Virus genome (UHGV): UHGV-0178594
Strand: one strand, 5' to 3'
Source: a virus
DNA length: 64,000 nucleotides
Part shown: piece after piece, positions 8,832 through 50,943 of the stretch
Layout: each line of letters opens with the position of its first letter
Position numbering within the stretch: position 1 is the stretch's first letter
Notes under the pieces: generated by a model
Database searches by the model: none
Told to the model about the DNA's origin: nothing
The model's input: the letters and a program-made list of their open reading frames with translations, nothing else
Translations under genes and position numbers: made by a program

Positions 8832-9758
8832 TTAACTAACAATCCAGTCGGTCGCTGCTACATCTTCTGGCTGTAAATCAATCGCACAGATCTTGCCGTC
8901 GCGAAAGGTGCGCCAGTTTTTCCGTGAGCCTCTTTCGGGCCATACCCAGACACTTTCAGGCCAGGATGCTCGACGGCATACGGTTGCATACCCTGTTTTA
9001 ATCTTCTCTCTGGCGGTATGCAACGACAGGTTTGCCTTTGGACTTTCAGGCACAGGATGGTGAATGGCCTGAAATAGCCCCATCCTGGGATGATACCAGC
9101 GTTTGTTGCGTGGTTCAGCCTCCGACATAACCTGCTTAAAGGCTTTCCGGAAGGGGGCCAGGGCCACAATGGAGCGTCTCGCAAGCAAACCATCGGGAGT
9201 TAAAAACTCATGCGTATCTGTGGGGATCCGGTAAGCGTTGACCAGGTTGCGGCATTTGGCTTCAGTCAGGCCGCATTTCGCCGCTAACTGGCGATAGCCA
9301 ATGTAGCCTTCCGGAATATTGCCTTTCTTTATTTGCTCGACGGTTTCAGCGACTTTGGTCACTTGTGCCGATACTTCGGCTACCTGGGCATTAACGGCGT
9401 TGATCCGGCGTTCATGCTCAAGATGCATTTGCGCCATTTCGGCCAGAATTTCGGCTTTTGATTTTAACGGTCCTCTGGCATTCTCCAGTTCGCGCCAGCG
9501 GTCCACCAGCCGGGCGGTGAATTCGGGAGAGAGCTGCGCGACGACGATAATGCTATCGCGCTTGCCTTGTTCGCCTTCGAAGACGTAATAGCTCGCCGGG
9601 CGGCCTGCAGTGGGCTTTTCCTCAATTTGAGGAAAAGTTATTACGCCCCGTTCCGCCAGGTGTTCAATGGTGCGTTTAACGTTGTCAGGACGCTTACCCA
9701 CCAGCTCCGCGATCTCAATACTGGTCATTGTCGCTTTTTGAGAGATGGACAGATTCAT
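8832..9758 (-). CDS. antirepressor-like protein (Rha/Bro-N-type N-terminus) fused to DUF2829-like C-terminal domain
   Basis: N-terminus MTSIEIAELVGKRPDNVKRTIEHL...; C-terminus ...WVWPE...DWIVS; homologous to 50236..50943 plus 50039..50251. Confidence 0.6.
   Translation of the reverse strand: MNLSISQKATMTSIEIAELVGKRPDNVKRTIEHLAERGVITFPQIEEKPTAGRPASYYVFEGEQGKRDSIIVVAQLSPEFTARLVDRWRELENARGPLKSKAEILAEMAQMHLEHERRINAVNAQVAEVSAQVTKVAETVEQIKKGNIPEGYIGYRQLAAKCGLTEAKCRNLVNAYRIPTDTHEFLTPDGLLARRSIVALAPFRKAFKQVMSEAEPRNKRWYHPRMGLFQAIHHPVPESPKANLSLHTAREKIKTGYATVCRRASWPESVWVWPERGSRKNWRTFRDGKICAIDLQPEDVAATDWIVS
9190..9600. repeat. ~0.4-kb direct repeat (left copy) inside antirepressor gene, ~90% identical to 50390-50760
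   Basis: Long identical runs, e.g. aaaactcatgcgtatctgtggggatccggtaagcgttgaccaggtt and ttcgcgccagcggtccaccagccgggcggtgaattcgggagagagctgcgc. Confidence 0.7.
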
Positions 9759-9973
9759 CAGTGCACCTCCACGCAGTTCATTGGCAGATTCCAGTAATTG
9801 AGGATCTCCATCGCATCAAGAGTGAAGCGAGCAGCAAAAATGCAGGGTTCTTCGGGAAGGTATGAGCGCGCTTCTGCTTCGGTTGCAGCCATGACGCAGA
9901 TATACAGGTGTTTTTGGCAGGAATAGAAACGCCAGATAAATTCAGAATGAGTTGGGGTAGGGATAGTAGCCAT
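9758..9973 (-). CDS. Icd-like small protein (immI-type module)
   Basis: 71 aa, ATGA-coupled to antirepressor gene; paralog of 50943..51167 (EFIWRF...AATE.EARS). Confidence 0.4.
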   Translation of the reverse strand: MATIPTPTHSEFIWRFYSCQKHLYICVMAATEAEARSYLPEEPCIFAARFTLDAMEILNYWNLPMNCVEVH

Positions 9974-10785
9974 ATTGGCAGCCTCCTTTGACTAAGTTAA
10001 GGAGCTACCGCGTGAGGTTCCAATCTCAATGGCGGTAGCACTGACTGGGTTGGAACTACCGGCGTCAAAGGGAACCGGCCTGCCTTTCGGCAGCCCAGCC
10101 AGCACTACCATTGATCTCTGAGCTAAACGCTAAGTATGGCTGTGCGATGGCATGACACAAAAAAAGACGCGTTCGGCGTCTGTGTCGCCTTTGACATTAT
10201 CCGGGGTTCCAATCCCGGCACCCGTTTTTCTAAGGTGCCGTAGAAATATACCCCACGATAATGCCAGGGCGCAACTGTGTGTTTTCTTATGCTTTTCTTT
10301 TCTTCTTTTGGGCTTGCTTGCAGGCGTAGGCCATTGCTTTAGCTTTCACTTCATCCAGCTTTCCGGTGATCACTTCTTTTCCGAGAGTGACAAACCAGTC
10401 ATAGCAACCGCCAGTGATGTTCTGGATTTGAAAGTTGAGGTAGCGAACGGTCATTTTGACACCCCCAGCGCGAGTAAAGAATGCAGATTATCGCGTGAGT
10501 GGCGGACAACGAGTGATGGGAAAAGACAGTAGCTGTTCATAGTGTAGTGACTCCTTGCTTTCGGAGCCGCCATCGACTGTTCCACGGTCTGGTGGCGGCG
10601 CAATAAAGGTTGGAACACCGTGAGTCAACGGGGGCTTTTCAGCCACCTATATTGCACCGCCATTGGTATGGCGGCGGCAATCATACGAAAAACCAAACGG
10701 TTTGTCTCAAAAAGTTGACCGGTGTACCAATCGGTTGTGAATGTACAACGGCGAATCTCACAATTCAACTTAAAATGTTAGAAAA

Positions 10786-11361
10786 TTAATTTATCAATTC
10801 AGTCACCATCTGATACAACGTCATTTCATCAGCATTGTGCCGCCTGAAATCTGCTTTGCCGCCTATTTTTCCATCAGCATGAACAGGAACCAACCAGGGG
10901 TATTGCTCGCGGATCTCTGCTGGCGCTGCGTGTTGATGGTGCCATTTACACAAAGGGAGGACGTATTTATGCGCGTTCTCTGCTGTTCTCCCGAAGATGT
11001 GGTGCAGGGATACCACAGGGCTATGCTGTCCGTGCATATGGCAGGCAATGCAGGGGAGAGCACCGATGGCAGTTTGTATCCGGCGCTCATCTGCTGTGAG
11101 TGTTCTGCCTTTCAGGCCGCGTGACGCGCGAGTTTTTTTGACAGGAGCAGAAGCGGCCTTCTCTTTTCTTCGCTGTTCATATTGCTTCGCTTTTTCAATT
11201 TTCTTTTGCCGATATTCAGGCGATGCGGCTTTTTCTCGCGCACGCTGCTGCTGGCGTTGAGCTTGCTGAAGACGCTTTGCCCTTTGTTCCTCCCGCCATT
11301 TCGGATCAGCCAGTTTTTGCAGGGCTTTTTGTGTCTGTTTCTCCCAATAGCTTTGCTTCAT
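10786..11361 (-). CDS. Ref-like HNH endonuclease (recombination enhancement function)
   Basis: Cys/His cluster LPCIACHMHGQH...LPLCKWHHQH; ORF track begins at TTG 11403, ATG at 11361 preferred; 34-bp palindrome immediately upstream. Confidence 0.55.
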   Translation of the reverse strand: MKQSYWEKQTQKALQKLADPKWREEQRAKRLQQAQRQQQRAREKAASPEYRQKKIEKAKQYEQRRKEKAASAPVKKTRASRGLKGRTLTADERRIQTAIGALPCIACHMHGQHSPVVSLHHIFGRTAENAHKYVLPLCKWHHQHAAPAEIREQYPWLVPVHADGKIGGKADFRRHNADEMTLYQMVTELIN

Positions 11362-11404
11362 AGAAATACCCGGTTTGTCTACATCGCCGCTATGGTTGAT
11401 CAAA

Positions 11405-11438
11405 TGTGTTAGAAAATCAAAATTGATTTTCTAACACA
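11405..11438. promoter_or_regulatory. 34-bp perfect palindrome, bipartite operator candidate (GTTAGAA-N14-TTCTAAC)
   Basis: TGTGTTAGAAAATCAA-AA-TTGATTTTCTAACACA in divergent promoter region between Ref-like gene and rightward early operon. Confidence 0.6.
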
Positions 11439-12592: not shown

Positions 12593-13058
12593 CGCTGAGT
12601 ATGTAACGGAAATTTCCCGACTTGAGAAAGAGCGCGCGGCGCTGGCGGCAGAGAATGCGACACTGAAGGCGATATGTGAGGACCGCCGCACGTTCATCAT
12701 GAATGGCGTGCTGCTTGGTTTTATCCAGATGCCAACAGCGGAAATAGATCCAGCTCTTGAAACAATTCGTGTCGCCCTATCACCACAAAATCCTACCCCT
12801 GCGACCGACGCTTTCTTGGATGAAATGAAGACTGAAGCACGCAAGGAAGGGGCTTACTTTGTGGCGAACAGAATGTTGGCTGCCTGGAAAGCTGGTTTTA
12901 TTGATGATACTGCGAAGAACGCCGCGGATATTGCCCGGATGATTCTTACCTCTACTGATTTTATGGCTAATGCGCCGGAAGGAGATTTTGACCGCTCATT
13001 CTCTGATGGCGTTCTCGAAGATATCGCTGAACAGCTTCGTAAAGGAGTCATCCAGTGA
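12549..13058 (+). CDS. Ead/Ea22-like protein
   Basis: Shares ERAALAAENATLKA coiled-coil and C-terminal IAEQLRKG module with paralogs 14099, 18256. Confidence 0.55.
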   Translation: MKSEGLTPAQLAERNAEYVTEISRLEKERAALAAENATLKAICEDRRTFIMNGVLLGFIQMPTAEIDPALETIRVALSPQNPTPATDAFLDEMKTEARKEGAYFVANRMLAAWKAGFIDDTAKNAADIARMILTSTDFMANAPEGDFDRSFSDGVLEDIAEQLRKGVIQ

Positions 13059-13777
13059 GCGAAATTAATTACCAGGCACTGCGTGAGGCGGCGGAACGTG
13101 CAATTCCAGCAATGGAACGCCTGTTAATGTTGCCAGCTGATGATGATTTGTTAAGTGAACAGGAACTTAAAGATTACGGTGTGGATATTGATGCGCTCAA
13201 CGCCTTCAAATTTCTGGCCGGACCAGAAACCGTGCTGGCACTACTGGATGAACGGGAAAGAAACCAGCAATACATCAAATCTCGCGACCAGGAGAACGAG
13301 GATATTGCGCTAACGGTAGGGAAGCTGTTAATCGAAAACGGTCAGCTTGTTGCCGATACGCTACGCCACTTAGCTGATAACGAAATCGACTCTGATTATT
13401 TTGCTATCACCTCAACTAATGAGAACGGTACTGAAATTGATCATGAGATGTCTATTACCGATTACGCACTGCAAGCTGCCGGAACTGTAGACGAATTGGT
13501 TGCGGCGCTGGAAGCCGCAAAATCAAAACTCAACGAGCAGCGTGAATATTACGAGGGAGTAATCGCGGATGGAAGTAAGCGCATAGCAGAGTTAGAAAGT
13601 GGTTCTCAGGCACAAAAGTTAGTTGAAGCAATCATTGTTGCGATAGAAAACGAACAGGAACGTCTTTTTGATGAAGATTACCTAATGGATTCGAAAGAAT
13701 GCATTGACGTAATTCGTGAAGAAGTAAAGCGATGGAATGATTCCCGCGCCGCTGGCATTCGCATCAAAGGAGAGTGA
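13055..13777 (+). CDS. Ead/Ea22-like protein
   Basis: GTG start in conserved junction; N-terminus [14 protein letters not shown] shared with 19190 ORF. Confidence 0.55.
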
Positions 13778-16324: not shown

Positions 16325-16356
16325 GTGTTAGAATATTGATTTTAATTTTCTAACAT
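16325..16356. promoter_or_regulatory. palindromic operator candidate (GTTAGAA-N14-TTCTAAC)
   Basis: GTGTTAGAATATTGATTTTAATTTTCTAACAT between phosphatase gene and 16398 ORF. Confidence 0.5.
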
Positions 16357-17397: not shown

Positions 17398-17976
17398 GTG
17401 GATCAAAAAATGAAAGAACGCGGGATGATTTTTAACGATGAGATGGTCCGGGCAATTCTTGGCGGGAATAAAACACAGACTCGCAGGATTGTTGAAGAAA
17501 AATTCTATGGACGAGCAGTTGCCGCAGAGTTGCTTGCCAAGCATTGTCCATATGGTCAACCGGGCGATCGTATTTGGGTTCGCGAAACCTACCGGGTACA
17601 TGGCAAAGCGACGGACGTCGCAACGCTGGTTTATCGCGCAAGCGTGCGTAACTCCTGGACAGAACAAACGCACCGGGTTCCGGTCGATGTTTGTAATAAA
17701 CCAGTATCAGAAAAGTGGACGCCATCAATTCACATGCCGCGCTGGGCATCGCGCATTCTTCTGGAAATTACCGACGTGCGTGTGGAACGGCTGCATGACA
17801 TGAGCGAGGCAGATGCTAAAGCAGAAGGCGCAACTCCGGCGACGTACAAGATTACGCCACCTGAAGCTGTTTATCGCGTTGGTTTTGGTGATATCTGGCG
17901 CAGTATTTACGGGCAGGATAACTGGCTATCTAACCCGTGGGTATGGGTAATCGAGTTTAAGCGCATTCAGGAATAA
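17398..17976 (+). CDS. hypothetical phage protein
   Basis: 192-aa ORF; start uncertain (ATG at 17398, 17410 or 17425). Confidence 0.45.
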   Translation: MDQKMKERGMIFNDEMVRAILGGNKTQTRRIVEEKFYGRAVAAELLAKHCPYGQPGDRIWVRETYRVHGKATDVATLVYRASVRNSWTEQTHRVPVDVCNKPVSEKWTPSIHMPRWASRILLEITDVRVERLHDMSEADAKAEGATPATYKITPPEAVYRVGFGDIWRSIYGQDNWLSNPWVWVIEFKRIQE

Positions 17977-18059
17977 ACCGTGAGTATGCATCAAATCGTC
18001 AGTTTTTCAGGTGGACGAGCATCGGCCTGTCTCGTTCATCTGTTCGAAGAGGTAGTGGA

Positions 18060-18263
18060 ATGACAATCGTAAAAACCCATACCGGTACCGTGATCACCAA
18101 AGATGGCCCGCAGGTAAAAAAACTGCACCAAACAGAGCGGATGTGGGTCGTTGGCAAAAACGAGTTTTACCACAAAGAAACTGGACGCCGCCATTTTGCA
18201 GAAAATACGCGCCGCCGACTGCTGTTAGACACCATCAAGCCTATCGAGGTGAAGCATGTTTAA
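18060..18263 (+). CDS. hypothetical small protein
   Basis: 67-aa ORF. Confidence 0.4.
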   Translation: MTIVKTHTGTVITKDGPQVKKLHQTERMWVVGKNEFYHKETGRRHFAENTRRRLLLDTIKPIEVKHV

Positions 18264-18495
18264 ACAGAACGAAAAAGCTATCGCTCAAATTGCTGATTAT
18301 ATCCCGCGTGCGTGCCGAGGTATGCAGTTGCAGGAAGCCAAAGCGCGCCTGGAGAAAAAAATTGCGCTCTATATTGATGACGGCTGTGATGCCGCCGTTC
18401 TTAACGCGGCGTTCGCACCAGCTCTTAACCGTCATACTCGGGAGTCTTTTTTTTCGTGCATCGCAGCGCAACTCCGCAAAGGAGGCAACCAGTGA
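18256..18495 (+). CDS. Ea22-like C-terminal module protein
   Basis: Ends ...CIAAQLRKGGNQ, same C-terminal module as other Ea22-like ORFs. Confidence 0.4.
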   Translation: MFKQNEKAIAQIADYIPRACRGMQLQEAKARLEKKIALYIDDGCDAAVLNAAFAPALNRHTRESFFSCIAAQLRKGGNQ

Positions 18496-18758
18496 GTGAG
18501 TCAAAATGCCAAATTAATGGCAACAAGATAGAACCGTGCGCGGCGTTGACGCAATCCCTGGAACATGACGCTGAATACACGACGCGAAAAGGTCTGCTGA
18601 AATACAAAATCTATAACCATGCATTAATTCATTCACAAGACCTGATCATGCTGCGGTCAGGCGAGTTTTCTAAATCGCCGATTCGAATTTCATTTTGCCC
18701 GTTCTGTGGTGAAAGTCTGAAAACGTGGGAAGCGGAGGCAACCAGTGATCAAAATTAA
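18492..18758 (+). CDS. hypothetical protein with zinc-ribbon-like motif
   Basis: GTG start in conserved junction; ...ISFCPFCGESLKTWEA. Confidence 0.4.
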   Translation: MSESKCQINGNKIEPCAALTQSLEHDAEYTTRKGLLKYKIYNHALIHSQDLIMLRSGEFSKSPIRISFCPFCGESLKTWEAEATSDQN

Positions 18759-19203
18759 CTATCAAGAACTGCGCGAGGCGGCGGAACAGGCAACGCAAGA
18801 TGAATGGGTAGCATATATTTTGCCGGGTCATAACGGCATTTATCCTGCGCGCACGTCTGAGGGTAGGCATTGCGGATACTTTATTGACTGGCCTGGTATT
18901 GATGGGCTGAGAAACGCTGGTGCCAATGCCCGTTATATCGCGGCTATCCCACCAAAAGTTGCTCTGGCGCTACTGGGCGAAATTAAGCGCCTGGAAGACG
19001 CAAATATTGATGCCATGTGCCGAATTGCAGAACTGGAGAGCAATCGCGCGACGCTGGCGGCGGAGCAGCGTATTCAGATTGCAATAAATGAACTGGTTGC
19101 TCTGGCCCCGCGCCTGGATAAACGAGCGATGGATGCACTCTCTGTGACTGTGGTGCACCTGTATAAACTGATTAATAAGGAGGCAACCAGTGAGCGAAAT
19201 TAA
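18745..19203 (+). CDS. Ead/Ea22-like protein
   Basis: N-terminus (V)IKINYQELREAAEQ; internal ELESNRATLAAEQ. Confidence 0.5.
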   Translation: MIKINYQELREAAEQATQDEWVAYILPGHNGIYPARTSEGRHCGYFIDWPGIDGLRNAGANARYIAAIPPKVALALLGEIKRLEDANIDAMCRIAELESNRATLAAEQRIQIAINELVALAPRLDKRAMDALSVTVVHLYKLINKEATSERN

Positions 19204-19888
19204 TTACCAGGCACTGCGTGAGGCGGCAGTGAAAGCAACGTGGGGAGACTGGGACTCATATAAACCACACCGTGGCGCACGTGGTTATGAGGTCCGACTA
19301 AGTAGTCAGGCCATTGCGCAACACGTTCTGAAAAACAACGCTGAATTTATTGCTGCCTTTAATCCCAAGGTTGCTTTGGCACTACTGGATGAGATCAACG
19401 CATTAGAGGAAACGCGTATCAACGATGTTTGCCGTATTGTGGAACTAACAAAACAACTGGAGTCGGCAAAATCAAAACTCAACGAGCAGCGCGAGCATTA
19501 CGAGGGAGTAATCGCGGATGGAGGTAAGCGCATAGCAGAACTGGAAAAACAATGCGCTGAATCGGAGCGAAAAGCATTAAGCAACTTTGAAGAGTGTGCT
19601 GCGATGGCTGAACGTATCGAAGAGTTGGAGCAGGCCAACACAAGACAGGACGCCAATATAAACCACCAGCAGGAGGGCGTGACTCAATCAGTCACCCGAT
19701 ACATATATCACTACAACGCAGTGAATGGTTCTGACTCTATGTCTGGAATTGCGCGGTTAACTTTCATGATCAAATCACAATCTGACCTTGACGCACTTAA
19801 AAGCGCACTTAGCAAGGTTGGTGGTTTCCGTGCAAAAGCAATTACATCTCTTTCATATCTTGGGTGTGAGGAAGATAGCAAACGATGA
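19190..19888 (+). CDS. Ead/Ea22-like protein
   Basis: N-terminus [13 protein letters not shown]; shares [25 protein letters not shown] with 13055 ORF. Confidence 0.5.
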   Translation: MSEINYQALREAAVKATWGDWDSYKPHRGARGYEVRLSSQAIAQHVLKNNAEFIAAFNPKVALALLDEINALEETRINDVCRIVELTKQLESAKSKLNEQREHYEGVIADGGKRIAELEKQCAESERKALSNFEECAAMAERIEELEQANTRQDANINHQQEGVTQSVTRYIYHYNAVNGSDSMSGIARLTFMIKSQSDLDALKSALSKVGGFRAKAITSLSYLGCEEDSKR

Positions 19889-20428: not shown

Positions 20429-20941
20429 ATGACCAGTATTACCAGAGAACAGGCCAAGAAAATTATTGAAGCTGCCGATGAGGTTATTAGTGCGCTTGCC
20501 GGAACTAACGAGGATGTTCACCCTGGTAGCGATAACATGCTACGTCTGTGGGATGACCTGAATGACCGTTACGCGCCGCCGGAAGTTGTGCGTGAGCTGG
20601 CGCGTATCGTGCTGGCATCGCTGGAAGCGGAGCCTGTAGCGTGGCGATATCGCTACGTGAAAAAAGGCGTTACGGACTCTCAGGGGGAGCCGTGGGTTGG
20701 TGACTGGAAATATGTACCGACAAAAGAGGATTGCAACGACAGGCCGAGCTATGAGATTCAGGCCTTATTCACTGCCCCGCCAGTCCCGGTGACATCAGAA
20801 GGACTGGTTAAAGCCGTGCGTTTCTATGAACAAGTTAAGCGTGAAAATCCGCCAGTCGAAACCGGAGCATGGAAAGACGCGATTGACTGGGTGCTCAAAG
20901 AGGCCTGCCAGGTTGTAAACACTGGCATCAAAGGAGACTGA
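20429..20941 (+). CDS. hypothetical protein
   Basis: 170 aa; shares LASLEAEPVA...PPVPVT module with 21149 ORF. Confidence 0.45.
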   Translation: MTSITREQAKKIIEAADEVISALAGTNEDVHPGSDNMLRLWDDLNDRYAPPEVVRELARIVLASLEAEPVAWRYRYVKKGVTDSQGEPWVGDWKYVPTKEDCNDRPSYEIQALFTAPPVPVTSEGLVKAVRFYEQVKRENPPVETGAWKDAIDWVLKEACQVVNTGIKGD

Positions 20942-20942
20942 T

Positions 20943-37806: not shown

Positions 37807-37810
37807 AATT

Positions 37811-37897: not shown

Positions 37898-37902
37898 TAA
37901 AT

Positions 37903-39290: not shown

Positions 39291-39323
39291 TATGTTAGAA
39301 AAACAATTTTAATTTTCTAACAC
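39291..39323. promoter_or_regulatory. palindromic operator candidate (GTTAGAA-N14-TTCTAAC)
   Basis: ATGTTAGAAAAACAATTTTAATTTTCTAACACA, 4 bp from stop of 39325 ORF. Confidence 0.5.
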
Positions 39324-39324
39324 A

Positions 39325-40533
39325 TTATTTCCCGTAAAGATTTTCAACTCCACCGTTCTTCTTATCCCACTCGTTCGCCCATACCCGGCAAGCATCAATT
39401 ATTTCCTGACGGCGATCGCCCTGCATGAACGGAATGCTTTCATGAAAGCTGCTTGGAATGCAGGCCACACTGAACACTGTATCAAACTCAGTCTGCTTGA
39501 TTGCCTCCAACGTCTCTGGACGCATTTTCAATTCGTCGATCGGTGCATCCTTAGAGTCCATAATCCGGCGATGCAAGCGTGGAAAATCCGTTTCAAGGTA
39601 CGCCATAATTTTATCTGCCAGACATTCGTCTATGTCGGTATTCCAGTCAGTTTCGAAGCCAGGAATTCGGTAGTAAAGCGGCGTTCCCCATACTGACGGG
39701 ATCACATCCATCGTCAGCAGGCGGCTGGTTCTGATTTGCTGATGGTAATTTGCCGTCAGCAACGCTTCGCCACGTTGCCCAGTCTCCGCGACCAGACCAT
39801 GCGGAAACTCATGGATATAGGCAATAGCTTCTCTTCCGTCATACATTAGCGGGAATGTCTCTGGCCTTTGCCCCATGCCACAGGCGCGATTCAGATCATG
39901 ACCAAGCTCTGAGCACTCTCGTTTCAATGTTTCAATAATGCTCTGCGCCGCTGCTAACTTTTTACGCAGTGTGACGAGTTCGCCTTGATACTCAACGCAT
40001 TGCTGATTTAGCTTGGTTAAACGCTCTTTTAGTTCCCGACGCTCTCTTTTCAGCGTGCGGTTATCTTTCTCCGCAACATCCAGTCGTTTTGTCAGGCTTG
40101 GCGGATAGTCTTTTTTGTAACGACTCAAATCGACTTCAGCAGATTTGCGCAGTGTATTTGCCTGCTCAAGACGCGCCTCCAGATTGCCGATCTCATTACG
40201 CATATTCGCGGCAAATTGATTAACTGCATCCCCCAGGCTTTCAACTGTCGCTGATACACCAGTGACTTGAGAAAAACGGATCAAGCCATCATTAACGGCT
40301 TGCTGATATTCCTCAAACTGATCCACCAGCTTATTGTAATCAACTGCCCCATCATCAAGGAGCTGGTTGATTTCCGCCACCAGGTTATCTGTAGTGGCAA
40401 TGACGCTCTCATGCAGTCGCTTTGACAGGTCATCGCCCGGATTTCGTTTCTGTATAAGCGCGATTTGTGTCCGCAGCGTTTCAATTGCGGTTGAGATGAT
40501 CTCCAGGCTTGATGATTCTACTTGCTGACTCAT
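39325..40533 (-). CDS. coiled-coil protein with C-terminal globular domain
   Basis: 402 aa; N-terminal ~200 aa heptad-rich; flanked by GTTAGAA palindromic sites and terminator 40606-40631. Confidence 0.5.
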   Translation of the reverse strand: MSQQVESSSLEIISTAIETLRTQIALIQKRNPGDDLSKRLHESVIATTDNLVAEINQLLDDGAVDYNKLVDQFEEYQQAVNDGLIRFSQVTGVSATVESLGDAVNQFAANMRNEIGNLEARLEQANTLRKSAEVDLSRYKKDYPPSLTKRLDVAEKDNRTLKRERRELKERLTKLNQQCVEYQGELVTLRKKLAAAQSIIETLKRECSELGHDLNRACGMGQRPETFPLMYDGREAIAYIHEFPHGLVAETGQRGEALLTANYHQQIRTSRLLTMDVIPSVWGTPLYYRIPGFETDWNTDIDECLADKIMAYLETDFPRLHRRIMDSKDAPIDELKMRPETLEAIKQTEFDTVFSVACIPSSFHESIPFMQGDRRQEIIDACRVWANEWDKKNGGVENLYGK

Positions 40534-42532: not shown

Positions 42533-45500
42533 TTAGGCCGCATCGGCGATTATTTTACGCAGTTCATCTAACGAGTAACGCGTAGATACCATCCATGCAG
42601 GACGGTCAAAGTTCACATCAGCAACCGGGTTTGCTTCAAAATTCCAGAAACGCCCGCCAATCTTCTTAATCGCGTCTTTGGCGTTCCGTATTGTCGAGGA
42701 ACCAGGTTGGTCGGCAATGAGATAAACCGCACCGACGTCCTCGCTGACACTCCACCAGCGCCCGCGAACACGCGCCTTAGCGCGAATCGGCTTATCATTA
42801 ACCACAATGATATAGTCATCATTCGCCGCTTCATCAGCTCTTGCTTCAGCCACTGCCGCCTGCTCTTCTCTTTTGCTTTCAGCCTGTTCAAGCCTTTCCG
42901 CGATCTCTGATTCGGTGGCCCCGCCGTTTTTCAGCGATACATAGTCTTGCCACGTTGCTGATTTGAGCGCATCCGGCAACTCATTCACATAGTCACCGTC
43001 TTTCAACTCACGGGCGCGGCGGGTAGCCATTTCTACCAGGCGATTAACAGAAACAGCATCAGCAAAATCGTCCTTACTAATGTGTTTTTCATCAAATGCA
43101 TTGATGACAGCCCCCACCTTAATCCACTGTGATGCCGGTGATTCCAGGGGGTTATCAGCCTGGACTATGGCGAGTTTCGCTCCATCTACCCCATTATTCG
43201 CCAACTGTTCCAATGCCGCCCATCCATCTGCATCACTGAGTGATTTATATTGCTCAAACAATGCATCGCGCCAGGCCACCAGCGCAGAACGTGTTTTTTC
43301 GATCTTCGTCTTAATTTTGGCGATCTTGACCTGATTAAACATCCGTTCAATATCATCGATATTGCTAAAGGCTTTCATTCTGCCCTTGAATAAACGGTAT
43401 GCCAGCACGGTCCTCCAGAATGATTCCAGACCTTCTCCGGACGGTTTGCGGAACAAGCTAAGAATATCTTCAGAAGTGACTTTATTAAGCGAACGACCTG
43501 ACAGACCACGCCCAGCCATCCAGTTTTCGAACTCCTGGACAACATCATCCATCGTTGCCTGTGCGCCCCATGCCTGCATTCCCTGGATGTAATCATACCC
43601 ATACAATGCCTGGAGGAATCCCTCGCCGTCCACGATATTCAGCGGGTTATCACTGGCTTGTATTTTTGCCACTTCACGCTTCAGCGCCTCATCGTTGCCA
43701 TCTGGATATATCCATCGTTCAGGTGCTATATCCGATGCTCGCCCGATTTTTTGGCCTATCACGCCATCATAGGCCGATGACAGCGCGATCTGACCATCAT
43801 CTGTGCGATATGCCCAGTATTTAATAGCTGACCCACCGCCCCATGCATTACCAGGTTTACCAGCAATAACATTCATTACCCCATTGCGAATAGCATCATA
43901 GAACTGATCGCGAGTAAGTATTGTTGATAGCTGGTGGCACTGAACACCACGCGCAGCCGTTGCGCGCGATTCAGCTACCCCCTCTTCAAAAGTTACCGCT
44001 TCAATCACAGAGTCAAACGGCAATGTAACGATTGACCCCGGTGATCGAGCGTAACGACTTGCTCTATCCAGCCAGGCGATACGGCAGAGGTATTGTGCTT
44101 TTTCACCGTCAATTTTTTCCACCCGGACAATCGCTGTTGTTTCGCGATCATCAATGACTGCACGGTAATAACTACCTTTATGCAACAGGATATTCTTGTC
44201 AGTGCGCATATATTCCTGTGGGTTCTGAATAACATCGATACTGATATCCAGCACACCAGACTTAATAGCGCGCTCCACATCACCACGAGAGCGTTTCATT
44301 ATGGTATCCGCGTCTTTTGCCCTGGTGATCGCAAACCGCAGCACCCGCGCACGTTTTCTGTAGCTACTCAACTGCTCAAGCGCGAATTTTTGCCCATTCC
44401 TGTTCGTACCCGCTTTTATCAGGTCGTCAAGATTGCGCTGGTAATACTCTATCTGTTCCATCGCGCTTTTCAGTTCTGTCTCCATCATGCCGATATCTTT
44501 TCCGGCGGCGTTTGCCGCTTTCAGGTAGATATCGAGAGCATTGTTGGCCTCGCGCTGTGCTTTCAGTTTCAGACGTTCTTCACGCTCTTGCGCCTGGCGA
44601 GCCATGATTGCGCGGCGTTCTTCCGGGTTTGCCGCCAGCATAATAGCGCGTTCATCAGCATCATCCGCATCACCATTGGCGATCTCTGACATGTCGGAGG
44701 TCATCACCATCTTGATCCAGTCTTTCTTACGTTTCAGCGTATCCAGACGGAAGTCGTCGAATGTGCCTTTGCCACAATAGTAGTGAACATTGACCTTCTC
44801 TTGCGGTGAACCTACGCGCGCACCGCGCCCATTTCGTTGGTCGATACTGGCTGGTGTCCAGGGTAGTGTCAGGTGGTGGATATCGGTTGTCCCGATATGC
44901 AGGTTAATACCTACTTCAGCCTTCTTGTTACAGATAATGATGCGCGTGCGCCCTTCGTTATAGTCGGCGGCAATGCCTTCCATACCCTCAAGGCCAGCAT
45001 CATTTTTAGCTGAGAGATAATCCTCATATTGGGCAAGTTTGCTGTAGTAGGTTTCCCATGCCCCTTCTTTGTATTCACCGTTTTTATTCGGAGTAGGTTC
45101 AGTCGGCTTATTCACCTTCTTCAGCTTGATGCCGCCAGCCTGGCTAACGGTCGTCGCATTGATAATGCCTATCTCCTGCTCCGGCATTTGCAGTGCACTG
45201 GCGATAATACGGCGCAGCTTCTGGTGCTGGGCTTTTTCATCAATGAAGACAATTTGTTTACCGTTCTTCAGACCTTCACGAAGGTTTTCGATCAGCGCGG
45301 CATACTTCGGCGGGATGGGGTGTGATACCTGCTGCAGATCAATCCCGGCGGCAGCAATGGCCTTCAGTATTTCAGCTTCCAGTTCAATGCTGGCACGTAT
45401 TTCAACATGCGCCGGATGTTCACTAAAGGTGGTCTTCACTACCTTACTGGTGCGCGTACTAACCAGCCCACCAGCGCCGTCTTCTTCGGCCTCGTCTGCA

Positions 45501-48500
45501 TCATCTGCCACTTTACCGCCAGCTACTTTTGGCAGGGCATCAGCAATAGCTTTTACCTTGTCTGCAAGCTCAACGGGGAACTGGAATGTAATCGCACTGG
45601 CATACAGATCCGGATCTATAGCAACCTTATCCATGTCGCGGATGATGGAGAAGATGAAATCATCCGGTTTTTCGTTTGTGATATGCCCGTTTTCATCAAC
45701 CGTCAGCGCATCTTTACTACTTAACTCCTGTGCACGCTTACGAAGCTCTTCATAAGCAGCCTCCTGCTCCCCTGTCATCGGGATCTGCAAGGTATTCTCG
45801 ACAATATCAGGGATTTTAACCGTCGCCCCGACGTCCGCAGCAGTCTTCAGAGTAGTCCAGCGATGGAAAATACCACGCAGGCCATCAAGGTTCTGGAAGC
45901 CAACCAGCCCCTGCTTCTCTTCCACTTCCCCGGAAATTTTCTGGACCTGAACTGTGGCTGTTTTACCAAACACACGAACGAAATCATCAGGCGTAATGAT
46001 GCCCATGCGCATCCACTCTTCCTGCGGAATGACAGTAGACAGCATGTTGAAGGCATCAATCGGACTGTTCACCAGCGGTGTTGCCGTCAGCATGACTACA
46101 CCACGCCCGTTGTTGCGTTTCATCATGTACGCAGCTTTTACAGCCATGTCGCGGGCCATCTTGGATACTGCCGGGTTAGGCAAATATGCCAGTTGTCCCG
46201 CTTCACGCCCGGCATTAAAGGAGTTGCGGTAGTTATGCCCCTCGTCGGCAATCACGCTATCGAAGTTCATATCCTCAAAGTACGGGATATTCTGCTTCTT
46301 CGTTGTACCGGTATTCGCGGCCTGATCCTTAATCTTGTTCTTCTTCTGCGCATCACGGTGTTTACCAGACGCCAGGTCAAGACGCCCCATTTCCACAGCA
46401 TTAAAGACAGCTTGCTGTGAGTTCTCCTCGATGGTTTTTTCTCGTAGCGGGATAGACGCGAATTGTTCTTTTGTCATGATGACCGTTCGCCAATTTGACG
46501 ACGGGATCATGTTCATGCGCTGAACGATAACGGCGCTGGCGGACTCTTTCACAACATTTCTGGTAAGAGGCTGCCCGTTACTGTCGAGGCGGGGTTCGCC
46601 ATTTTCATCAAGCACCGGCGCGGTCAGAATATTGCCGTCTTCATCACGAACTTCATCCAGACCGATAAACATCATATTTGCGAAGGCATCAGCACTGTAG
46701 AAGCTCTGTGCCTCGTGATACCAGTTCTGATAAACCGCCTTCGGAACAACAATACACGTGCGTTTAGTGCGACCTGTTTCGAAGTTATACGCCTCAAGCG
46801 CAAGCGCGGTCGTGGTTTTACCCAGCCCGGTACCAAATCCCATGATGCCGCGCCCATCTTCTGACAAGCGACGAACTTCTTCATTCTGATAAGTCAGAGG
46901 AATGCGCTTTCCACTAATCCCTTCCAGGCCAAGCGGTGCGTTAGAGTGCGTGAACGGAATGAAGCCATTGAATGCGTCGTTATAGTCACGGGCTATCTGA
47001 TCCGCCTGCGGGTGGGTGCGTAACCAGTCGTTAAAGCTAACTTCCAGTTGAGCAATTTTATCCAAGTACTCGTTAGCGTTCTGCCCACGCGGTTTAACAC
47101 CGTTCAGGTAGTTTTCTAACTGGTTCAGGAAGCCGTCTTTATTGTTGGCCTTCTTGAACTCATTCCCGTTTTTGCCGTTTACGGTTCGTAGTTGATAGCC
47201 GGTAAATACCCCGTCCTTACCTTCGTAATCGTCCGGAGATACCAGAATGCCATCGACGACCTTCAGATCAGGTTCAGTGTACTTAAACTCGTCATAGCCC
47301 TGCTCTGCCAGGAACTCTTTTATCAAGCGGCGATCCAGCCAGCGGGCGTTCAGATTAACGGTGACTTTATTTAGTGGCGTGAAAATGCGTTTCTCTTCGA
47401 TTTTCGCCAACTGACGCTCAAAGTTCGCTTTCTGCTCACCTGTTGACGCATCACGCCAACCCACCAGCAATGTTGTTTTGGTTGCAATATCGCCGCTGGT
47501 GGCGCGGTCCATCGGCAGCAGGCAGCCATACCCATCAATAGCGATATCATCAAATTTCGCCAGGTATTCAAGGGCCGCGTCGTCGTCCTCTGGCAGTTCA
47601 CCAGCAAACGCCTCACGAAAGTCGCCCAGCGTTATAGGATTAAGGGCTACATCACTGAAAAGATGTGCTATCACTTGTTCAGGACGTGTAAAGTCAATAC
47701 CGGCAGCACCATCCGTTACATCAAGTCGCCCTGCCAGAAGGTCAGAAGTGGAACCATCCTGTTTCACATTGCCAGTGAACGTCATCCAGTTTTTAGCGCC
47801 AGCTTCAGCAAGCCCATTCAGCTTAATCGCGTGCGGTGGTCCATACTTCGCAACTTCTGCTGCCGCCAGGCGGGATGCATCTGCCAGTTTGTCATCAACG
47901 TTCACCCCCAGGTTACGCAAATCAAGTGCCTTGTTGATCAACTGCCCTATCAACGCACCGCGCATAACGCGCTCCCTGTCTTTTTCTCGCTGTTTGCCAG
48001 CAAAGCGAATCATTGCTGCCACTTCATCACTGACAACCGATGGATAGTCGGACGCGATCGCCGATATCTGGTCCCATGACAAAGCCAGAATCCCGTTTGT
48101 TGACTGGAACGCGATCTGCAGATCGCCAAACGTCGAAACACCATATCGACTTACATCAAGCGCGGAGGATTTGGTTGTCGTGTCCTTAACCCATTTCAGA
48201 CCATCAAACTCATGCCAGATACCGCCTACAAGGCGTTTATCGCCCACTTTCGCGCCCTGCCATGCCTGGGTAGTTACTCCGAGCAAATCCCAATTAATAC
48301 GGCTTTCAAAGCGGCGTGATAACGCGGTTTTCATCGACTCATTGGATACACGACCGTCCTTTTTCACCACCAGGGTATTGCGGAAGCTGGTGCGTTCCAT
48401 GTCGCCGTAAACAAATCGCTTCCCTTCGGTTGTAAACCATTTCCCTTTGAGGAAGGTATCCCAAAGGACGTTTGCCGATTTGAGCGTTGCATCATCCGTG

Positions 48501-49384
48501 TCGGGGATCATCTCCAGGAAGGTTTCCGGGTGTTTACGCAATACCCATACGTCCACCACCGTATCTGTACCGGATTCGCTGAACGTACCAGAAGGCATAC
48601 GATGCGCGCCCAAAAATTCCGCTTTACGGCTGACTTTATCGCGCAATTTTTTGTATTTCGTACCATCGGTCATGCCATTCGGCACCACCAATACAATTAG
48701 TCCACCAGGCTTAACCTTGTCGATTGTGCGCAGCACAAAGTAATTGCCAACGTTCTTCTCGTTTGCATATGCCGGATCAAGCCCGGCGACACCGGAACGC
48801 CCTTCACCAAACGGTACGTTACCAACAGCGTGATCATACATTGCGTCTTTCGCCGCCAGCGCCTCAAACGCCCCGATATTCACATCGTCTTCCGGGTGCA
48901 AAAGCTGGTTTATTCGACCGGAAATCGGAGACAGTTCGGCGCTGGTCATTATCATGCCCTGCCGTTTTGTCTCCTGGAAAATACCTGTGCCCGCTGATGG
49001 TTCCAGTACGTGCCCGCCATCAATACCGTAGTCAGCAAACAGATCCCATATACCTTCAGCCATAAACTGTGGCGTGTAGTATTCGTATTGGCTGCCCTCA
49101 CCATCTGTCAGGCCGCCTTCACCGGTATACCCGGCAAGAATCTGACGTTGTGCGTCAGTTAATTTCGCCCCATCGAAGCCGGGCGGAAGGGAATTAAGAA
49201 GATTTACTGCGGCGTTGTTTGCTGCCCGGCGTGTTTTCTGAATACTGACGCCATCGACTTTCTTAACGCCAAAGGTCACTACAGCTCGCGGTTTATGCAA
49301 CCGACTAACAATTTCAATCAGCGCCCCAATGCTGGTGGCCTGGCTAATTGAATCAATTATTTTGTCCAAAGGAAGCCCCCTCAA
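42533..49384 (-). CDS. DarB-like anti-restriction protein: N6-adenine methyltransferase fused to SF2 helicase
   Basis: 2283 aa (P1 DarB is of similar size as I recall); MTase motifs EPSAGTGIF and GNVPFG; helicase motifs GTGLGKTT, DEGHNYRN, LTATPLVNSP. Confidence 0.75.
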   Translation of the reverse strand: MRGLPLDKIIDSISQATSIGALIEIVSRLHKPRAVVTFGVKKVDGVSIQKTRRAANNAAVNLLNSLPPGFDGAKLTDAQRQILAGYTGEGGLTDGEGSQYEYYTPQFMAEGIWDLFADYGIDGGHVLEPSAGTGIFQETKRQGMIMTSAELSPISGRINQLLHPEDDVNIGAFEALAAKDAMYDHAVGNVPFGEGRSGVAGLDPAYANEKNVGNYFVLRTIDKVKPGGLIVLVVPNGMTDGTKYKKLRDKVSRKAEFLGAHRMPSGTFSESGTDTVVDVWVLRKHPETFLEMIPDTDDATLKSANVLWDTFLKGKWFTTEGKRFVYGDMERTSFRNTLVVKKDGRVSNESMKTALSRRFESRINWDLLGVTTQAWQGAKVGDKRLVGGIWHEFDGLKWVKDTTTKSSALDVSRYGVSTFGDLQIAFQSTNGILALSWDQISAIASDYPSVVSDEVAAMIRFAGKQREKDRERVMRGALIGQLINKALDLRNLGVNVDDKLADASRLAAAEVAKYGPPHAIKLNGLAEAGAKNWMTFTGNVKQDGSTSDLLAGRLDVTDGAAGIDFTRPEQVIAHLFSDVALNPITLGDFREAFAGELPEDDDAALEYLAKFDDIAIDGYGCLLPMDRATSGDIATKTTLLVGWRDASTGEQKANFERQLAKIEEKRIFTPLNKVTVNLNARWLDRRLIKEFLAEQGYDEFKYTEPDLKVVDGILVSPDDYEGKDGVFTGYQLRTVNGKNGNEFKKANNKDGFLNQLENYLNGVKPRGQNANEYLDKIAQLEVSFNDWLRTHPQADQIARDYNDAFNGFIPFTHSNAPLGLEGISGKRIPLTYQNEEVRRLSEDGRGIMGFGTGLGKTTTALALEAYNFETGRTKRTCIVVPKAVYQNWYHEAQSFYSADAFANMMFIGLDEVRDEDGNILTAPVLDENGEPRLDSNGQPLTRNVVKESASAVIVQRMNMIPSSNWRTVIMTKEQFASIPLREKTIEENSQQAVFNAVEMGRLDLASGKHRDAQKKNKIKDQAANTGTTKKQNIPYFEDMNFDSVIADEGHNYRNSFNAGREAGQLAYLPNPAVSKMARDMAVKAAYMMKRNNGRGVVMLTATPLVNSPIDAFNMLSTVIPQEEWMRMGIITPDDFVRVFGKTATVQVQKISGEVEEKQGLVGFQNLDGLRGIFHRWTTLKTAADVGATVKIPDIVENTLQIPMTGEQEAAYEELRKRAQELSSKDALTVDENGHITNEKPDDFIFSIIRDMDKVAIDPDLYASAITFQFPVELADKVKAIADALPKVAGGKVADDADEAEEDGAGGLVSTRTSKVVKTTFSEHPAHVEIRASIELEAEILKAIAAAGIDLQQVSHPIPPKYAALIENLREGLKNGKQIVFIDEKAQHQKLRRIIASALQMPEQEIGIINATTVSQAGGIKLKKVNKPTEPTPNKNGEYKEGAWETYYSKLAQYEDYLSAKNDAGLEGMEGIAADYNEGRTRIIICNKKAEVGINLHIGTTDIHHLTLPWTPASIDQRNGRGARVGSPQEKVNVHYYCGKGTFDDFRLDTLKRKKDWIKMVMTSDMSEIANGDADDADERAIMLAANPEERRAIMARQAQEREERLKLKAQREANNALDIYLKAANAAGKDIGMMETELKSAMEQIEYYQRNLDDLIKAGTNRNGQKFALEQLSSYRKRARVLRFAITRAKDADTIMKRSRGDVERAIKSGVLDISIDVIQNPQEYMRTDKNILLHKGSYYRAVIDDRETTAIVRVEKIDGEKAQYLCRIAWLDRASRYARSPGSIVTLPFDSVIEAVTFEEGVAESRATAARGVQCHQLSTILTRDQFYDAIRNGVMNVIAGKPGNAWGGGSAIKYWAYRTDDGQIALSSAYDGVIGQKIGRASDIAPERWIYPDGNDEALKREVAKIQASDNPLNIVDGEGFLQALYGYDYIQGMQAWGAQATMDDVVQEFENWMAGRGLSGRSLNKVTSEDILSLFRKPSGEGLESFWRTVLAYRLFKGRMKAFSNIDDIERMFNQVKIAKIKTKIEKTRSALVAWRDALFEQYKSLSDADGWAALEQLANNGVDGAKLAIVQADNPLESPASQWIKVGAVINAFDEKHISKDDFADAVSVNRLVEMATRRARELKDGDYVNELPDALKSATWQDYVSLKNGGATESEIAERLEQAESKREEQAAVAEARADEAANDDYIIVVNDKPIRAKARVRGRWWSVSEDVGAVYLIADQPGSSTIRNAKDAIKKIGGRFWNFEANPVADVNFDRPAWMVSTRYSLDELRKIIADAA

Positions 49385-49521
49385 AACCGTTAAATCCGCC
49401 TTAAGCGGTTCGGTTTGAGAGGGTATGGAGAATGTTATTTTCAGGGATGAACGACACTACCGTCAAAATCACATACTCACCATAGTTTGCCTACTTATTA
49501 ACCCATGAGCGGGAGAAATAT

Positions 49522-50007
49522 ATGGCAAACATTGAACCTCGCTGGCTTATTGAGGCCCGTAAAAATATTGGAGTCACCGAAATAAAAGGAGCGAAACACA
49601 ATCCAGAGATCGTTCAGTTCTGGCGGGATATTAAGCGCAGCGGAATTAAAGACGACGAAACGCCGTGGTGCGCTGCATTTGTTGGTGCAATGCTGGAACG
49701 TGTAGGTATCCGCTCAACAAGATTTGAGTCGGCAAAATCCTATCTGGATTGGGGCGAGAAATTAGATACACCGGCATACGGATGTATCGTTGTATTTACC
49801 CGCGTAGGCGGTGGGCACGTAGGCTTCGTTGTCGGACACCGCGCCAATGGCGATCTGCTTGTCTTGGGTGGGAACCAGGGGGATGCTGTTAATATTCGCG
49901 CATTCCCAACATCAAGAGTGTCTGGCTATCGCTGGCCTGCTGGCGAACCACGCAATACAGCTCTGTTACCAGTCGGAGACGCAGCAACCTCAACTAATGA
50001 GGCATAA
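49522..50007 (+). CDS. putative cysteine peptidase / cell-wall hydrolase (CHAP or NlpC/P60-like)
   Basis: Candidate catalytic Cys (TPWCAAFV) and His (GGGHVGFVV) spacing; 161 aa. Confidence 0.4.
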   Translation: MANIEPRWLIEARKNIGVTEIKGAKHNPEIVQFWRDIKRSGIKDDETPWCAAFVGAMLERVGIRSTRFESAKSYLDWGEKLDTPAYGCIVVFTRVGGGHVGFVVGHRANGDLLVLGGNQGDAVNIRAFPTSRVSGYRWPAGEPRNTALLPVGDAATSTNEA

Positions 50008-50030
50008 AAAAGCCCCGGCCAAGCCGGGGC
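50005..50030 (-). terminator. rho-independent terminator (minus-strand reading)
   Basis: gccccggc-caa-gccggggc hairpin next to A7 on plus strand. Confidence 0.6.
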
Positions 50031-50038
50031 ATCACACT

Positions 50039-50251
50039 TCAAGTTACGATCCAATCATTACCGACTGCATCCGCCGTCGATAAATCGACTTCCCGGATCT
50101 GGTATCCATTAATACAAAACCATCCAGTAGTAGAGCTATTATCAGGCCAGACCCATACACCAACACTCCATGCTTTACGGCGGCACACTTCAGCCTGTCC
50201 TTCCCTGATTTTTTTTACCGCCTGCATGATGTCCATCACTCGCCTCCCCAA
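50039..50251 (-). CDS. DUF2829-like small protein (separate ORF here, fused to antirepressor in left copy)
   Basis: ...EVCRRKAWSVGVWVWPD...DWIVT; 16-nt overlap with upstream antirepressor ORF. Confidence 0.45.
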   Translation of the reverse strand: MGRRVMDIMQAVKKIREGQAEVCRRKAWSVGVWVWPDNSSTTGWFCINGYQIREVDLSTADAVGNDWIVT

Positions 50252-50943
50252 CCGATTACCTGGAATTGCCCCATCCTTGGGTGATACCAGCGTTTTCCTC
50301 GGTGTTCAGCCTCCGACATCATCAGGGTAAAGGCATTCATGAAGGGAGATAAGGCCACAATAGTACGACGCGACAATACCCCCTCTGGCGTCAAAAACTC
50401 ATGCGTATCTGTGGGGATCCGGTAAGCGTTGACCAGGTTACGGCATTTGGCTTCAGTCAGGCCGCATTTCGCCGCCAGTTGGCGGTAGCCAATGTAGCCT
50501 TCTGGTATGTTGCCTTTCTTGATCTGCTCGACGGTTTCAGCGACCTGGCTAACCTTTGACTCAACAGCATGAAGCCGCTTTTGCTGCTGAACTGCATTCG
50601 CAGCCATTGCAGCGATCATCTCTATTTCGGTCAACGGCTGGCGTACTTGTTCTTCCAGTTCGCGCCAGCGGTCCACCAGCCGGGCGGTGAATTCGGGAGA
50701 GAGCTGCGCAACGACAATAATGCTGTCTCGTTTGCCTTGCTCGCCTTCGAAGACGTAAGCCTCAACGCCACGACGCAATCCTAAGTTATTGATTTTTTCG
50801 AAAACAGCCATTGGCGGTTTTCGGATAATGCTTCGAGCAACCATACGCTCAATACTACGTTTAACGTCAGAGTGTTGACTTCCCACCAGCTCCGCAATCT
50901 CAATGCTGGTCATTGATAGTTTTTCGAGAATGCAGATATCCAT
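50236..50943 (-). CDS. antirepressor-like protein (Rha/Bro-N-type)
   Basis: Paralog of 8832..9758 N-terminal 230 aa; ~90% identical DNA stretches. Confidence 0.6.
   Translation of the reverse strand: MDICILEKLSMTSIEIAELVGSQHSDVKRSIERMVARSIIRKPPMAVFEKINNLGLRRGVEAYVFEGEQGKRDSIIVVAQLSPEFTARLVDRWRELEEQVRQPLTEIEMIAAMAANAVQQQKRLHAVESKVSQVAETVEQIKKGNIPEGYIGYRQLAAKCGLTEAKCRNLVNAYRIPTDTHEFLTPEGVLSRRTIVALSPFMNAFTLMMSEAEHRGKRWYHPRMGQFQVIGWGGE
50390..50760. repeat. ~0.4-kb direct repeat (right copy) inside antirepressor gene
   Basis: See left copy; same orientation, ~41 kb apart. Confidence 0.7.

Follow-up and report, generated by a model that had tools for sequence, protein, structure and literature searches.

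Direct repeats in a D6-like phage-plasmid lie in two c4-icd-ant operons and carry signs of short-tract exchange

The stretch of viral DNA analyzed here (UHGV virus genome UHGV-0178594; 64,000 nucleotides, called "the window" below) carries two copies of a direct repeat, each within a gene for an antirepressor-type protein. The whole window is collinear with the complete Escherichia coli plasmid NZ_CP104667.1 (91,750 bp) in ten segments of 94.7-99.7% identity that are interrupted by small variable cassettes; identity is 99% or more over the backbone, and the match to this plasmid reaches 99.9% at the second repeat region. D6 matches at 88.6% around the first repeat region and at 91.1% around the second. 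Judged by this collinearity and by the match to D6, the window represents 64 kb of a D6-like plasmid prophage (phage-plasmid) that belongs to the P1 family and is circular, with a total size of about 92 kb. In this report, we describe the operons in which the repeats lie, the evidence for exchange between them, and a search for the rearrangements that they had been proposed to cause.

Self-BLAST and a repeat finder aligned positions 9068-9588 with 50259-50758 at 76.4% identity over 529 columns, with 6 gaps (E=6e-111). Self-BLAST also detected further direct repeats at 9697-9770 versus 50882-50955 (82.7%) and at 9864-9943 versus 51058-51137 (71%). A preliminary description of this DNA had reported direct repeats of roughly 90% identity over roughly 400 bp. 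Such repeats are real and well beyond chance, have the same orientation, and lie where they had been placed, but identity over the span described (9190-9590 versus 50381-50760) is 76.3%, with 55 gap columns. Identity near 90% is limited to two blocks, both on the minus strand. Block A (9190-9350; 161 bp) is 91.3% identical to 50381-50541 and encodes the peptide ETVEQIKKGN...HEFLTP. Block B (9484-9590; 107 bp) is 92.5% identical to 50654-50760 and encodes FEGEQGKRD...RWRELE. The linker between them, of 133 nt in one copy and 112 nt in the other, is 48.7% identical and essentially unalignable. The three longest exact runs are 56, 47 and 35 bp, and the 56-bp run is inside block B.

As had been proposed, the repeats reside in two antirepressor-type genes, both on the minus strand (Pfam PF09669, phrog_63). 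These genes, which we call ant1 and ant2, belong to whole modules that are collinear, at weaker homology, over about 1.4 kb (8806-10238 versus 50008-51420), each consisting of a C4 RNA gene, icd, ant, and a 3' hairpin. All module features given below are on the minus strand.

Module 1 begins with a leader (10160-10238) that matches the Rfam model for isrK (RF01394, 61.3 bits), and a terminator scan placed a terminator-like hairpin within it at 10165-10181. The gene for an antisense RNA, C4-1, follows at 10028-10115 (Rfam RF01695, 77.1 bits versus a gathering score of 45). Folding and loop mapping located the recognition loops of C4-1 at 10050-10056 (a', GUUCCAA) and 10064-10071 (b', CCUUUGAC). 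Exact complements of these loops are present as the a1 and b1 decoy targets (10206-10212 and 10188-10195) and as the a2 and b2 targets (10017-10023 and 9985-9992); read on the minus strand, a1, b1, a2 and b2 start at 10212, 10195, 10023 and 9992. The b2 site overlaps the Shine-Dalgarno sequence of icd-1 (GTCAAAGGAGG). A 39-aa "ash family protein" coding sequence was annotated by the Prokaryotic Genome Annotation Pipeline (PGAP) at 9992-10111 (NZ_CP104667.1 37221-37340), on the same strand and nearly over the C4-1 gene, and is probably a spurious protein called on an RNA gene.

The icd-1 gene (71 aa; 9758-9973; phrog_1426, E=4e-41) ends in a stop codon that overlaps the start of ant1 at 9758. 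Its product is 45% identical to that of icd-2, and orf83 of D6 is annotated as Icd-like. The ant1 gene (308 aa; 8832-9758) matches the anti-repressor Ant family phrog_63 (E=6e-62) and the Rha N-terminal domain (PF09669) at 30.5 bits, barely above the cut-off of 29.9. From the N-terminus, Ant1 is composed of a Rha-type winged helix-turn-helix (wHTH) cassette (~9582-9728), block B, the linker, block A, a core, and a fused C-terminal domain of ~65 aa (~8832-9040); the linker and core are locus-specific. The module is closed at ~8806-8828 by a hairpin that is homologous to the terminator of module 2 and has no T run.

Module 2 is preceded by two promoter-like sites found by a promoter scan. One is overlapped by an operator-like palindrome (GTTAGAAAAT..TGTTTCTAAT) at 51483-51525, and the other is at 51414-51442. 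Next come a c4-a1b1 element (51368-51420; Rfam RF03163, 55.2 bits), the exactly matching a1 and b1 decoy targets (51376-51382 and 51362-51368), and the C4-2 antisense RNA gene (51214-51299; RF01695, 69.6 bits versus the same gathering score of 45). The a' loop of C4-2 is CUGUCAA, as in P1, and its b' loop is UCGUAAGU versus UCACUAAC in P1. The a2 and b2 targets are at 51207-51213 and 51178-51185, and b2 overlaps the ribosome-binding site of icd-2 (ACTTACGAGG). On the minus strand, the targets of C4-2 start at 51382 (a1), 51368 (b1), 51213 (a2) and 51185 (b2).

The icd-2 gene (74 aa; 50943-51167), recognized as an open reading frame (ORF) with a PHROG match, has a stop codon that overlaps the start of ant2 at 50943. 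The ant2 gene (235 aa; 50236-50943) matches phrog_63 (E=1e-45) and PF09669 at 31.0 bits, again barely above the cut-off, and PGAP names both ant products "Rha family transcriptional regulator". Ant2 is built like Ant1 but ends before the C-terminal domain, whose split homologue is encoded by a 65-aa ORF (50039-50236) that overlaps the stop codon of ant2 by 1 nt (TGATG). A strong intrinsic terminator, with 8 G-C pairs and then a run of T residues, is located at 50012-50030. The hairpin is bidirectional and is shared with a convergent gene for a CHAP-domain/TIGR02594 peptidoglycan hydrolase (49522-50007, plus strand), which lies between darB and module 2.

Both modules have the features of a P1 immI-type region: a C4 RNA gene lies upstream of icd, and the a and b sites are exact complements of 7 and 8 nt. 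The annotated immI region of P1 likewise has 7-nt a and 8-nt b sites, with a1/b1 ahead of c4 and a2/b2 ahead of icd. In both modules, icd is translationally coupled to ant through the stop/start overlaps at 9758 and 50943. Such an arrangement would constitute an antisense-RNA-gated module, in which a1/b1 serve as leader decoys and the a'/b' loops of C4 act on the a2/b2 targets over the icd ribosome-binding site. Relative to P1, compensatory changes are found in the b' loop of C4-2 and in b1 and b2 of module 2. Because both targets carry changes that match b', the comparison argues that the pairing of C4-2 with its b sites is functional.

Loops were mapped by exact sequence, because RNAduplex pairing of complete C4 RNAs with the leaders opened the C4 fold altogether and gave uninformative energies. 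By exact mapping, neither module contains targets of the other module's C4 loops. Given this result, and given that the recognition loops of C4-1 and C4-2 differ, each C4 RNA would be expected to silence only its own icd-ant operon. The element would then have two orthogonal switches and two independent routes by which repression could be relieved.

A related question is how the operons might connect to the C1 repressor. The operator-like motif GTTAGAAAAT...TTTCTAAT is enriched in the window (29 matches to the half-site versus 10.3 expected). A palindrome, TGTTAGAAAAT...ATTTTCTAACA, was observed in intergenic control regions at 11405-11438, 39293-39326, 16327-16354 and 51490-51525, and single sites of the motif are at 10777, 29676 and 52716. 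The control regions concerned precede ref and the early operon, module 2, and repL, and the motif is probably the operator of a D6-type C1 repressor. Control of the operons by C1, to which the operator-like palindrome upstream of module 2 would be relevant, and inactivation of C1 by the Ant proteins are candidate functions only.

To describe variation in the modules, we used seven genomes: the window, NZ_CP104667, NZ_AP027414, NZ_CP056699, NZ_LR890273, NZ_CP058619 and D6. Most zones of the modules are separated by fixed differences between the two loci, with 78 fixed differences and 1 shared polymorphism in icd, 48 and 1 in the linker, 28 and 2 in the C core, and 55 and 1 in the C-terminal domain. 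Block A has 1 fixed difference and 17 shared polymorphisms, and block B has 0 and 7. In total, the blocks have 24 shared polymorphisms and 1 fixed difference, versus 5 and 209 in the flanking zones (Fisher p=5e-27).

Synonymous divergence has the same distribution. With the Nei-Gojobori method applied to a codon alignment (four-fold degenerate sites gave counts too low to be discriminating), the proportion of synonymous differences (pS) between loci is 0.25 for block B and 0.32 for block A, and within loci it is 0.20-0.30 (0.29-0.30 for block A). In flanking zones, pS is 0.57-0.80 between loci versus 0.06-0.26 within them. Nearest neighbors in the blocks also cross loci; for example, ant1 of the window is closest to ant2 of NZ_CP056699. 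Because shared polymorphisms, and values of pS that are equal between and within loci, occur in the blocks only, we infer that blocks A and B have undergone short-tract ectopic gene conversion.

These data also bear on the idea that no exchange occurred, and that purifying selection on the peptide or on an embedded nucleic-acid signal simply slowed the divergence of the blocks after an old duplication. Both blocks do encode invariant peptides, with a proportion of nonsynonymous differences (pN) of ~0 and only 0-1 amino-acid differences. However, selection on a protein does not equalize pS between loci (0.25-0.32) and within loci (0.20-0.30), nor does it produce 24 shared polymorphisms versus 1 fixed difference or nearest neighbors that cross loci, and we consider this explanation very improbable.

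A second explanation is that each locus recombines independently with a common pool of ant genes in other phages and prophages. Phage ant and Rha genes are notoriously mosaic, and the wHTH cassette occurs in four or more alleles at locus 1 and three or more at locus 2, as such a pool might predict. Against this, no donor is visible: a search at megablast sensitivity among 50,697 phage records found blocks A and B in D6 only, and in E. coli genomes the blocks occur at 199 plasmid places versus 2 partial chromosomal places (<=84%), and the median copy number over 100 genomes is 2. Since the blocks are confined to this lineage, an outside pool of donors is unlikely, in our view very much so, and exchange between the two D6-like loci is favored.

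The hypervariable wHTH cassette sits between the locus-specific first ten codons of ant and block B. Alignment of the window to NZ_CP104667.1 breaks at 9583-9663, an interval that corresponds to the cassette and has block B as one boundary, and the flanks are 99.7% identical. The ant1 cassette of the window therefore looks like a recent allelic replacement relative to that plasmid. Relatives of the locus-1 allele of the window adjoin icd-2 in 73 plasmids, and relatives of its locus-2 allele adjoin icd-1 in 15 plasmids. In the mechanism that we propose, the blocks would undergo ectopic conversion and would also act as joints at which the wHTH cassette is swapped. It can be further imagined that the blocks are kept as built-in joints for shuffling this specificity cassette within and between orthogonal circuits, a modular diversification of anti-immunity in which essential genes of the intervening arc (c1, phd-doc and pac) purge crossovers and leave only conversion. 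We put forward this last idea tentatively and regard it as rather doubtful.

The preliminary description had also suggested that recombination at the repeats could have generated the fused and split arrangements of the C-terminal domain. These arrangements do exist: full-length Ant1 aligns collinearly with Ant2 followed by the 65-aa protein (57% amino-acid identity), and phrog_7385 matches both the fused and split forms. However, the arrangement is strictly locus-specific in 7/7 genomes, including D6 (one product of 308-313 aa at locus 1, two of 235 and 65 aa at locus 2). The C-terminal zone, with 55 fixed differences versus 1 shared polymorphism, gives no sign of exchange between loci in the seven genomes, and repeat recombination was not the source of the arrangement.

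A relationship of this domain to Tad2-like proteins (DUF2829, PF11195) was considered, but profile matches are weak: against a cut-off of 25 bits, the 65-aa ORF scores 16.7 (E=0.011) and the C-terminus of Ant1 scores 10. A profile search of PDB with the domain, and an hhalign comparison with the true DUF2829 protein of the window, were negative, and a single-sequence AlphaFold2 model had a predicted local distance difference test score (pLDDT) of 60, too poor to use. At best, the ant-associated 65-aa domain would be a very distant Tad2-like relative. Elsewhere in the window, strong Tad2-like (Thoeris anti-defence 2-like) C-terminal domains are encoded by genes at 27632-28282 (minus strand, E=3e-18) and 35923-36498 (minus strand, E=4e-10); PGAP names the latter product "MW1434 family type I TA system toxin".

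The arc of ~41 kb between the repeats (9591-50258) has no plasmid replicon. It holds the genes that the preliminary description had assigned to it, namely Ref (10786-11403, beside module 1), the early operon, doc (26367-26747) with phd, a cre-like recombinase gene (29690-30718), pacAB (32174-35046), five tRNAs (36951-37979; Rfam detected four of them), and a darB-like gene (42533-49384). It also holds a c1-type repressor gene annotated "phage repressor protein" (31036-32136; c1 is named as in PMC6799933). The fifth tRNA, a Ser (tga) tRNA at 37456-37542 on the minus strand, was called by ARAGORN, and Rfam did not report it at the gathering threshold. A tblastn search of the window gave no match to RepB or ParM; by synteny with NZ_CP104667.1 and all other relatives compared, the RepB replicon and parM belong to the other arc. 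The repL-like lytic replication gene (51583-52542, minus strand; D6 orf20 "similar to P1 repL", PGAP "lytic replication protein", phrog_2418) immediately precedes module 2 and is not part of the 41-kb arc. Because the nearest relative is a ~92-kb circle, the 41.2-kb arc amounts to ~45% of the element, and the earlier statement that the repeats bracket most of it is incorrect.

The crossover geometry that had been envisaged is correct, in that a reciprocal exchange would split the circle into circles of 41 kb and ~50 kb. The 41-kb circle would bear c1, phd-doc, cre and pac and would have no replicon. The ~50-kb circle would keep the replicon but lose the repressor, the packaging genes and the Phd antitoxin. 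Presumably, both products would be dead ends.

Both predicted junctions were sought among 72,556 plasmid records, and the deletion junction was also sought among 5,426 complete E. coli genomes. The deletion junction was assembled from window positions 7800-9225 + 50417-51900, and the circle junction from 48800-50416 + 9226-10700; a junction was counted as present if a single contiguous place covered >=80% of the query. Among plasmids, the deletion junction was contiguous in 0/594 records that matched the query halves, and the circle junction in 0/457 matching records. Among the E. coli genomes, 694 matched the deletion query, and none was contiguous. The best coverage of a junction in plasmids was 64-66%, which corresponds to the parental arrangement plus a cross-match. 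Small D6-related plasmids of 23, 74.5 and 74.7 kb appear in the hit lists, and their repeats are still parental. The proposed 41-kb deletion or circle thus found no support, and the dead-end nature of both products would explain why no such variant was found. What does stand of the recombination proposed at the repeats is the population-genetic evidence for past events within the blocks.

One could nevertheless argue that the repeats are active substrates for 41-kb deletions or circles that are important to the biology or variation of the element. RecA-dependent recombination in E. coli has a minimal processing segment of ~25 bp, and the exact runs of 56, 47 and 35 bp exceed this length. Moreover, the repeats are in direct orientation, their blocks have a history of recombination, and Ref, a recombination-enhancing nuclease, is encoded beside module 1. 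However, the absence of both junctions from the plasmid records and of the deletion junction from the E. coli genomes, despite matches to the query halves in 457-733 records, speaks against such activity, as do the overall identity of 76%, a divergence in the blocks of ~8-9% that should strongly depress crossover, and the essential functions that each product would lose. In addition, a published survey of D6-like plasmids (PMC6799933) reports just one structural variant, a 15-kb deletion of morphogenesis genes that is unrelated to the repeats. Active rearrangement at the repeats is, on balance, highly improbable.

Comparison with other plasmids revealed how the modules are distributed. When module 2 was used as a query that extended from the CHAP-domain gene (49522-50007) to repL, 107 plasmid records contained 80% or more of it. 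The spacing between modules, computed from coordinates, varies among relatives from ~36.9 to 43.0 kb because the cassette content of the arc differs. In pTB423 (NZ_CP034790.1), a full-size D6-like plasmid, module 1 is wholly absent, and a 54-bp junction (L011 3216-3271) stands in place of window positions 8459-10283. The missing segment of 1,825 bp comprises a pmgF-like ORF, ant1, icd-1, C4-1 and the leader. Judging from this full-size plasmid, module 1 is a dispensable 1.8-kb cassette, and some lineages have no repeat pair. Several other plasmids have a single copy only of module-specific queries (blocks A/B, and an icd-2 chimera).

The pTB423 sequence is relevant to a further proposal, that the repeats are the scar of a cointegrate in which recombination between ant genes joined a circle with immunity, early and packaging functions to one with the replicon and structural genes. 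The two arcs are roughly complementary in function. Furthermore, module 2 is located by repL and has a c4-icd part 87.5% identical to that of P1, and module 1 is located by homologues of sim and pmgF, which is the site of immI in P1. However, module 1 is a discrete cassette that is cleanly absent from pTB423; therefore, insertion or loss of a module fits better than cointegration, which we find barely credible.

Taken together, it is very probable that this D6-like phage-plasmid has a pair of paralogous c4-icd-ant operons, both of the P1 immI type and in the same orientation, that the repeats are conserved coding blocks of these operons, and that short-tract conversion has occurred in the blocks without deletion. 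The earlier observation of repeats is therefore partly confirmed, and its interpretation partly supported.

Several points count against this conclusion. Ant1 and Ant2 are antirepressors by annotation only, and they have no detectable similarity to Ant1 of P1: BLASTP with P1 Ant1 gave E=0.014 (25% identity over 67 aa) for Ant1 of the window and E=0.21 for Ant2 of the window. We infer the orthogonality of the two switches, the lethality of both crossover products, and the identity of the c1 gene. The population analysis covers seven genomes, of which six are independent at module 2. Paralogue pairs from the same genome are no more alike than pairs from different genomes, and no recent conversion event was caught. 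Intramolecular exchange and exchange between plasmids are therefore indistinguishable, and exchange may have taken place mostly between co-resident or co-infecting plasmids and not within one molecule. Cassette alleles that cross loci have only 76-79% identity in the wHTH core, so these moves are old. Finally, databases of finished assemblies are blind to rare or transient recombinants.

If the conclusion is correct, these dispersed repeats are paralogous regulatory modules and not a deletion hotspot, and pipelines for annotation and assembly should refrain from marking them as sites of instability. Exchange in two blocks that flank a hypervariable DNA-binding cassette would be a natural example of short-tract concerted evolution, in which essential genes between the loci would select against crossovers. 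Two C4/icd/ant switches in one plasmid prophage could answer, or interfere with, two immunity groups.

The window has other repeats and variable cassettes. Short direct repeats of 64-89% identity (13044-13127, 18734-18817 and 19179-19262; 13508-13598 versus 19457-19547) fall in paralogous ead/Ea22-like genes of the early operon. Also in the early operon, cassettes are replaced relative to NZ_CP104667.1, with alignment breaks at ~13062-13754, 17971-18480, 18976-19364, 20435-21377, 23725-24576 and 26825-26848. At 63120-64000, copies of a 239-nt repeat with 72-80% identity, in a 120-bp register, lie inside an ORF on the minus strand (62513-63988), which is probably a tail-fibre gene because it is upstream of a tail-fibre assembly gene.

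Duplicated antirepressor modules in D6-like phage-plasmids are already known. The GenBank record of D6 (NC_050154) annotates both icd and ant pairs, with orf18/orf19 by repL and orf82/orf83 by pmgF/Ref, and a second c4/icd (antisense-RNA/icd) region was remarked on in the D6-like Salmonella plasmid pYU39_89 (Silva et al. 2019, PMC6799933). The window has the same two pairs at the same genomic positions as D6 and pYU39_89, but is only 88-91% identical to D6. In the literature searched, in which the D6 genome paper was not covered, we found no report of block-wise homogenization or of the C4 loop differences. Block-limited concerted evolution and differing C4 specificities are thus details added to a known pair of modules and are of modest interest. 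In the P1-like Escherichia phage JL22 (ON018986.2), segments at 96407-96736 and 43373-43761 match the c4/icd segments of module-1 type and module-2 type (92% and 88%), and dual C4 regions may therefore extend beyond D6-like elements.

The leader of module 1 resembles the isrK-anrP region of the Salmonella prophage Gifsy-1, where isrK is an Hfq-binding small RNA. Both have an isrK-type segment with an internal terminator upstream of an antirepressor operon. The two differ in host element, and in the window the isrK-like segment coincides with C4-type a1/b1 decoys. Because the isrK model covers a leader that has both these decoys and a terminator, the comparison suggests that isrK-type loci could be leaders of C4-type antirepressor circuits.

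The tufA and tufB genes are dispersed bacterial paralogues that undergo concerted evolution by gene conversion. As with these genes, dispersed paralogues on the same replicon appear to have been homogenized nonreciprocally in the D6-like element, with the intervening DNA kept. Unlike tufA and tufB, homogenization is limited to two blocks of 100-160 bp in genes that are otherwise strongly diverged.

The heteroimmunity of P1 and P7 is set by differences in the recognition loops of C4. Here, too, a few a'/b' bases with matching targets would set specificity, and module 2 has such a set of changes relative to P1. However, two specificities are present in one genome in our case, whereas in P1 and P7 they distinguish two phages.

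The closest parallel in organization is immI of P1 itself. Both modules have the identical layout of a1, b1, a2 and b2, with b2 at the icd ribosome-binding site. Upstream of module 2, the operator-like sequence and two promoter-like sites parallel Oc4 and the two c4 promoters of P1, and C4-2 matches the C4 RNA of P1 outside the b' loop. The differences are that P1 has one copy of the region and the window two, that the b' specificity is changed, that the gene order relative to repL is reversed, and that the effectors encoded in the window are of the Rha/Roi type and are not like Ant1 of P1.

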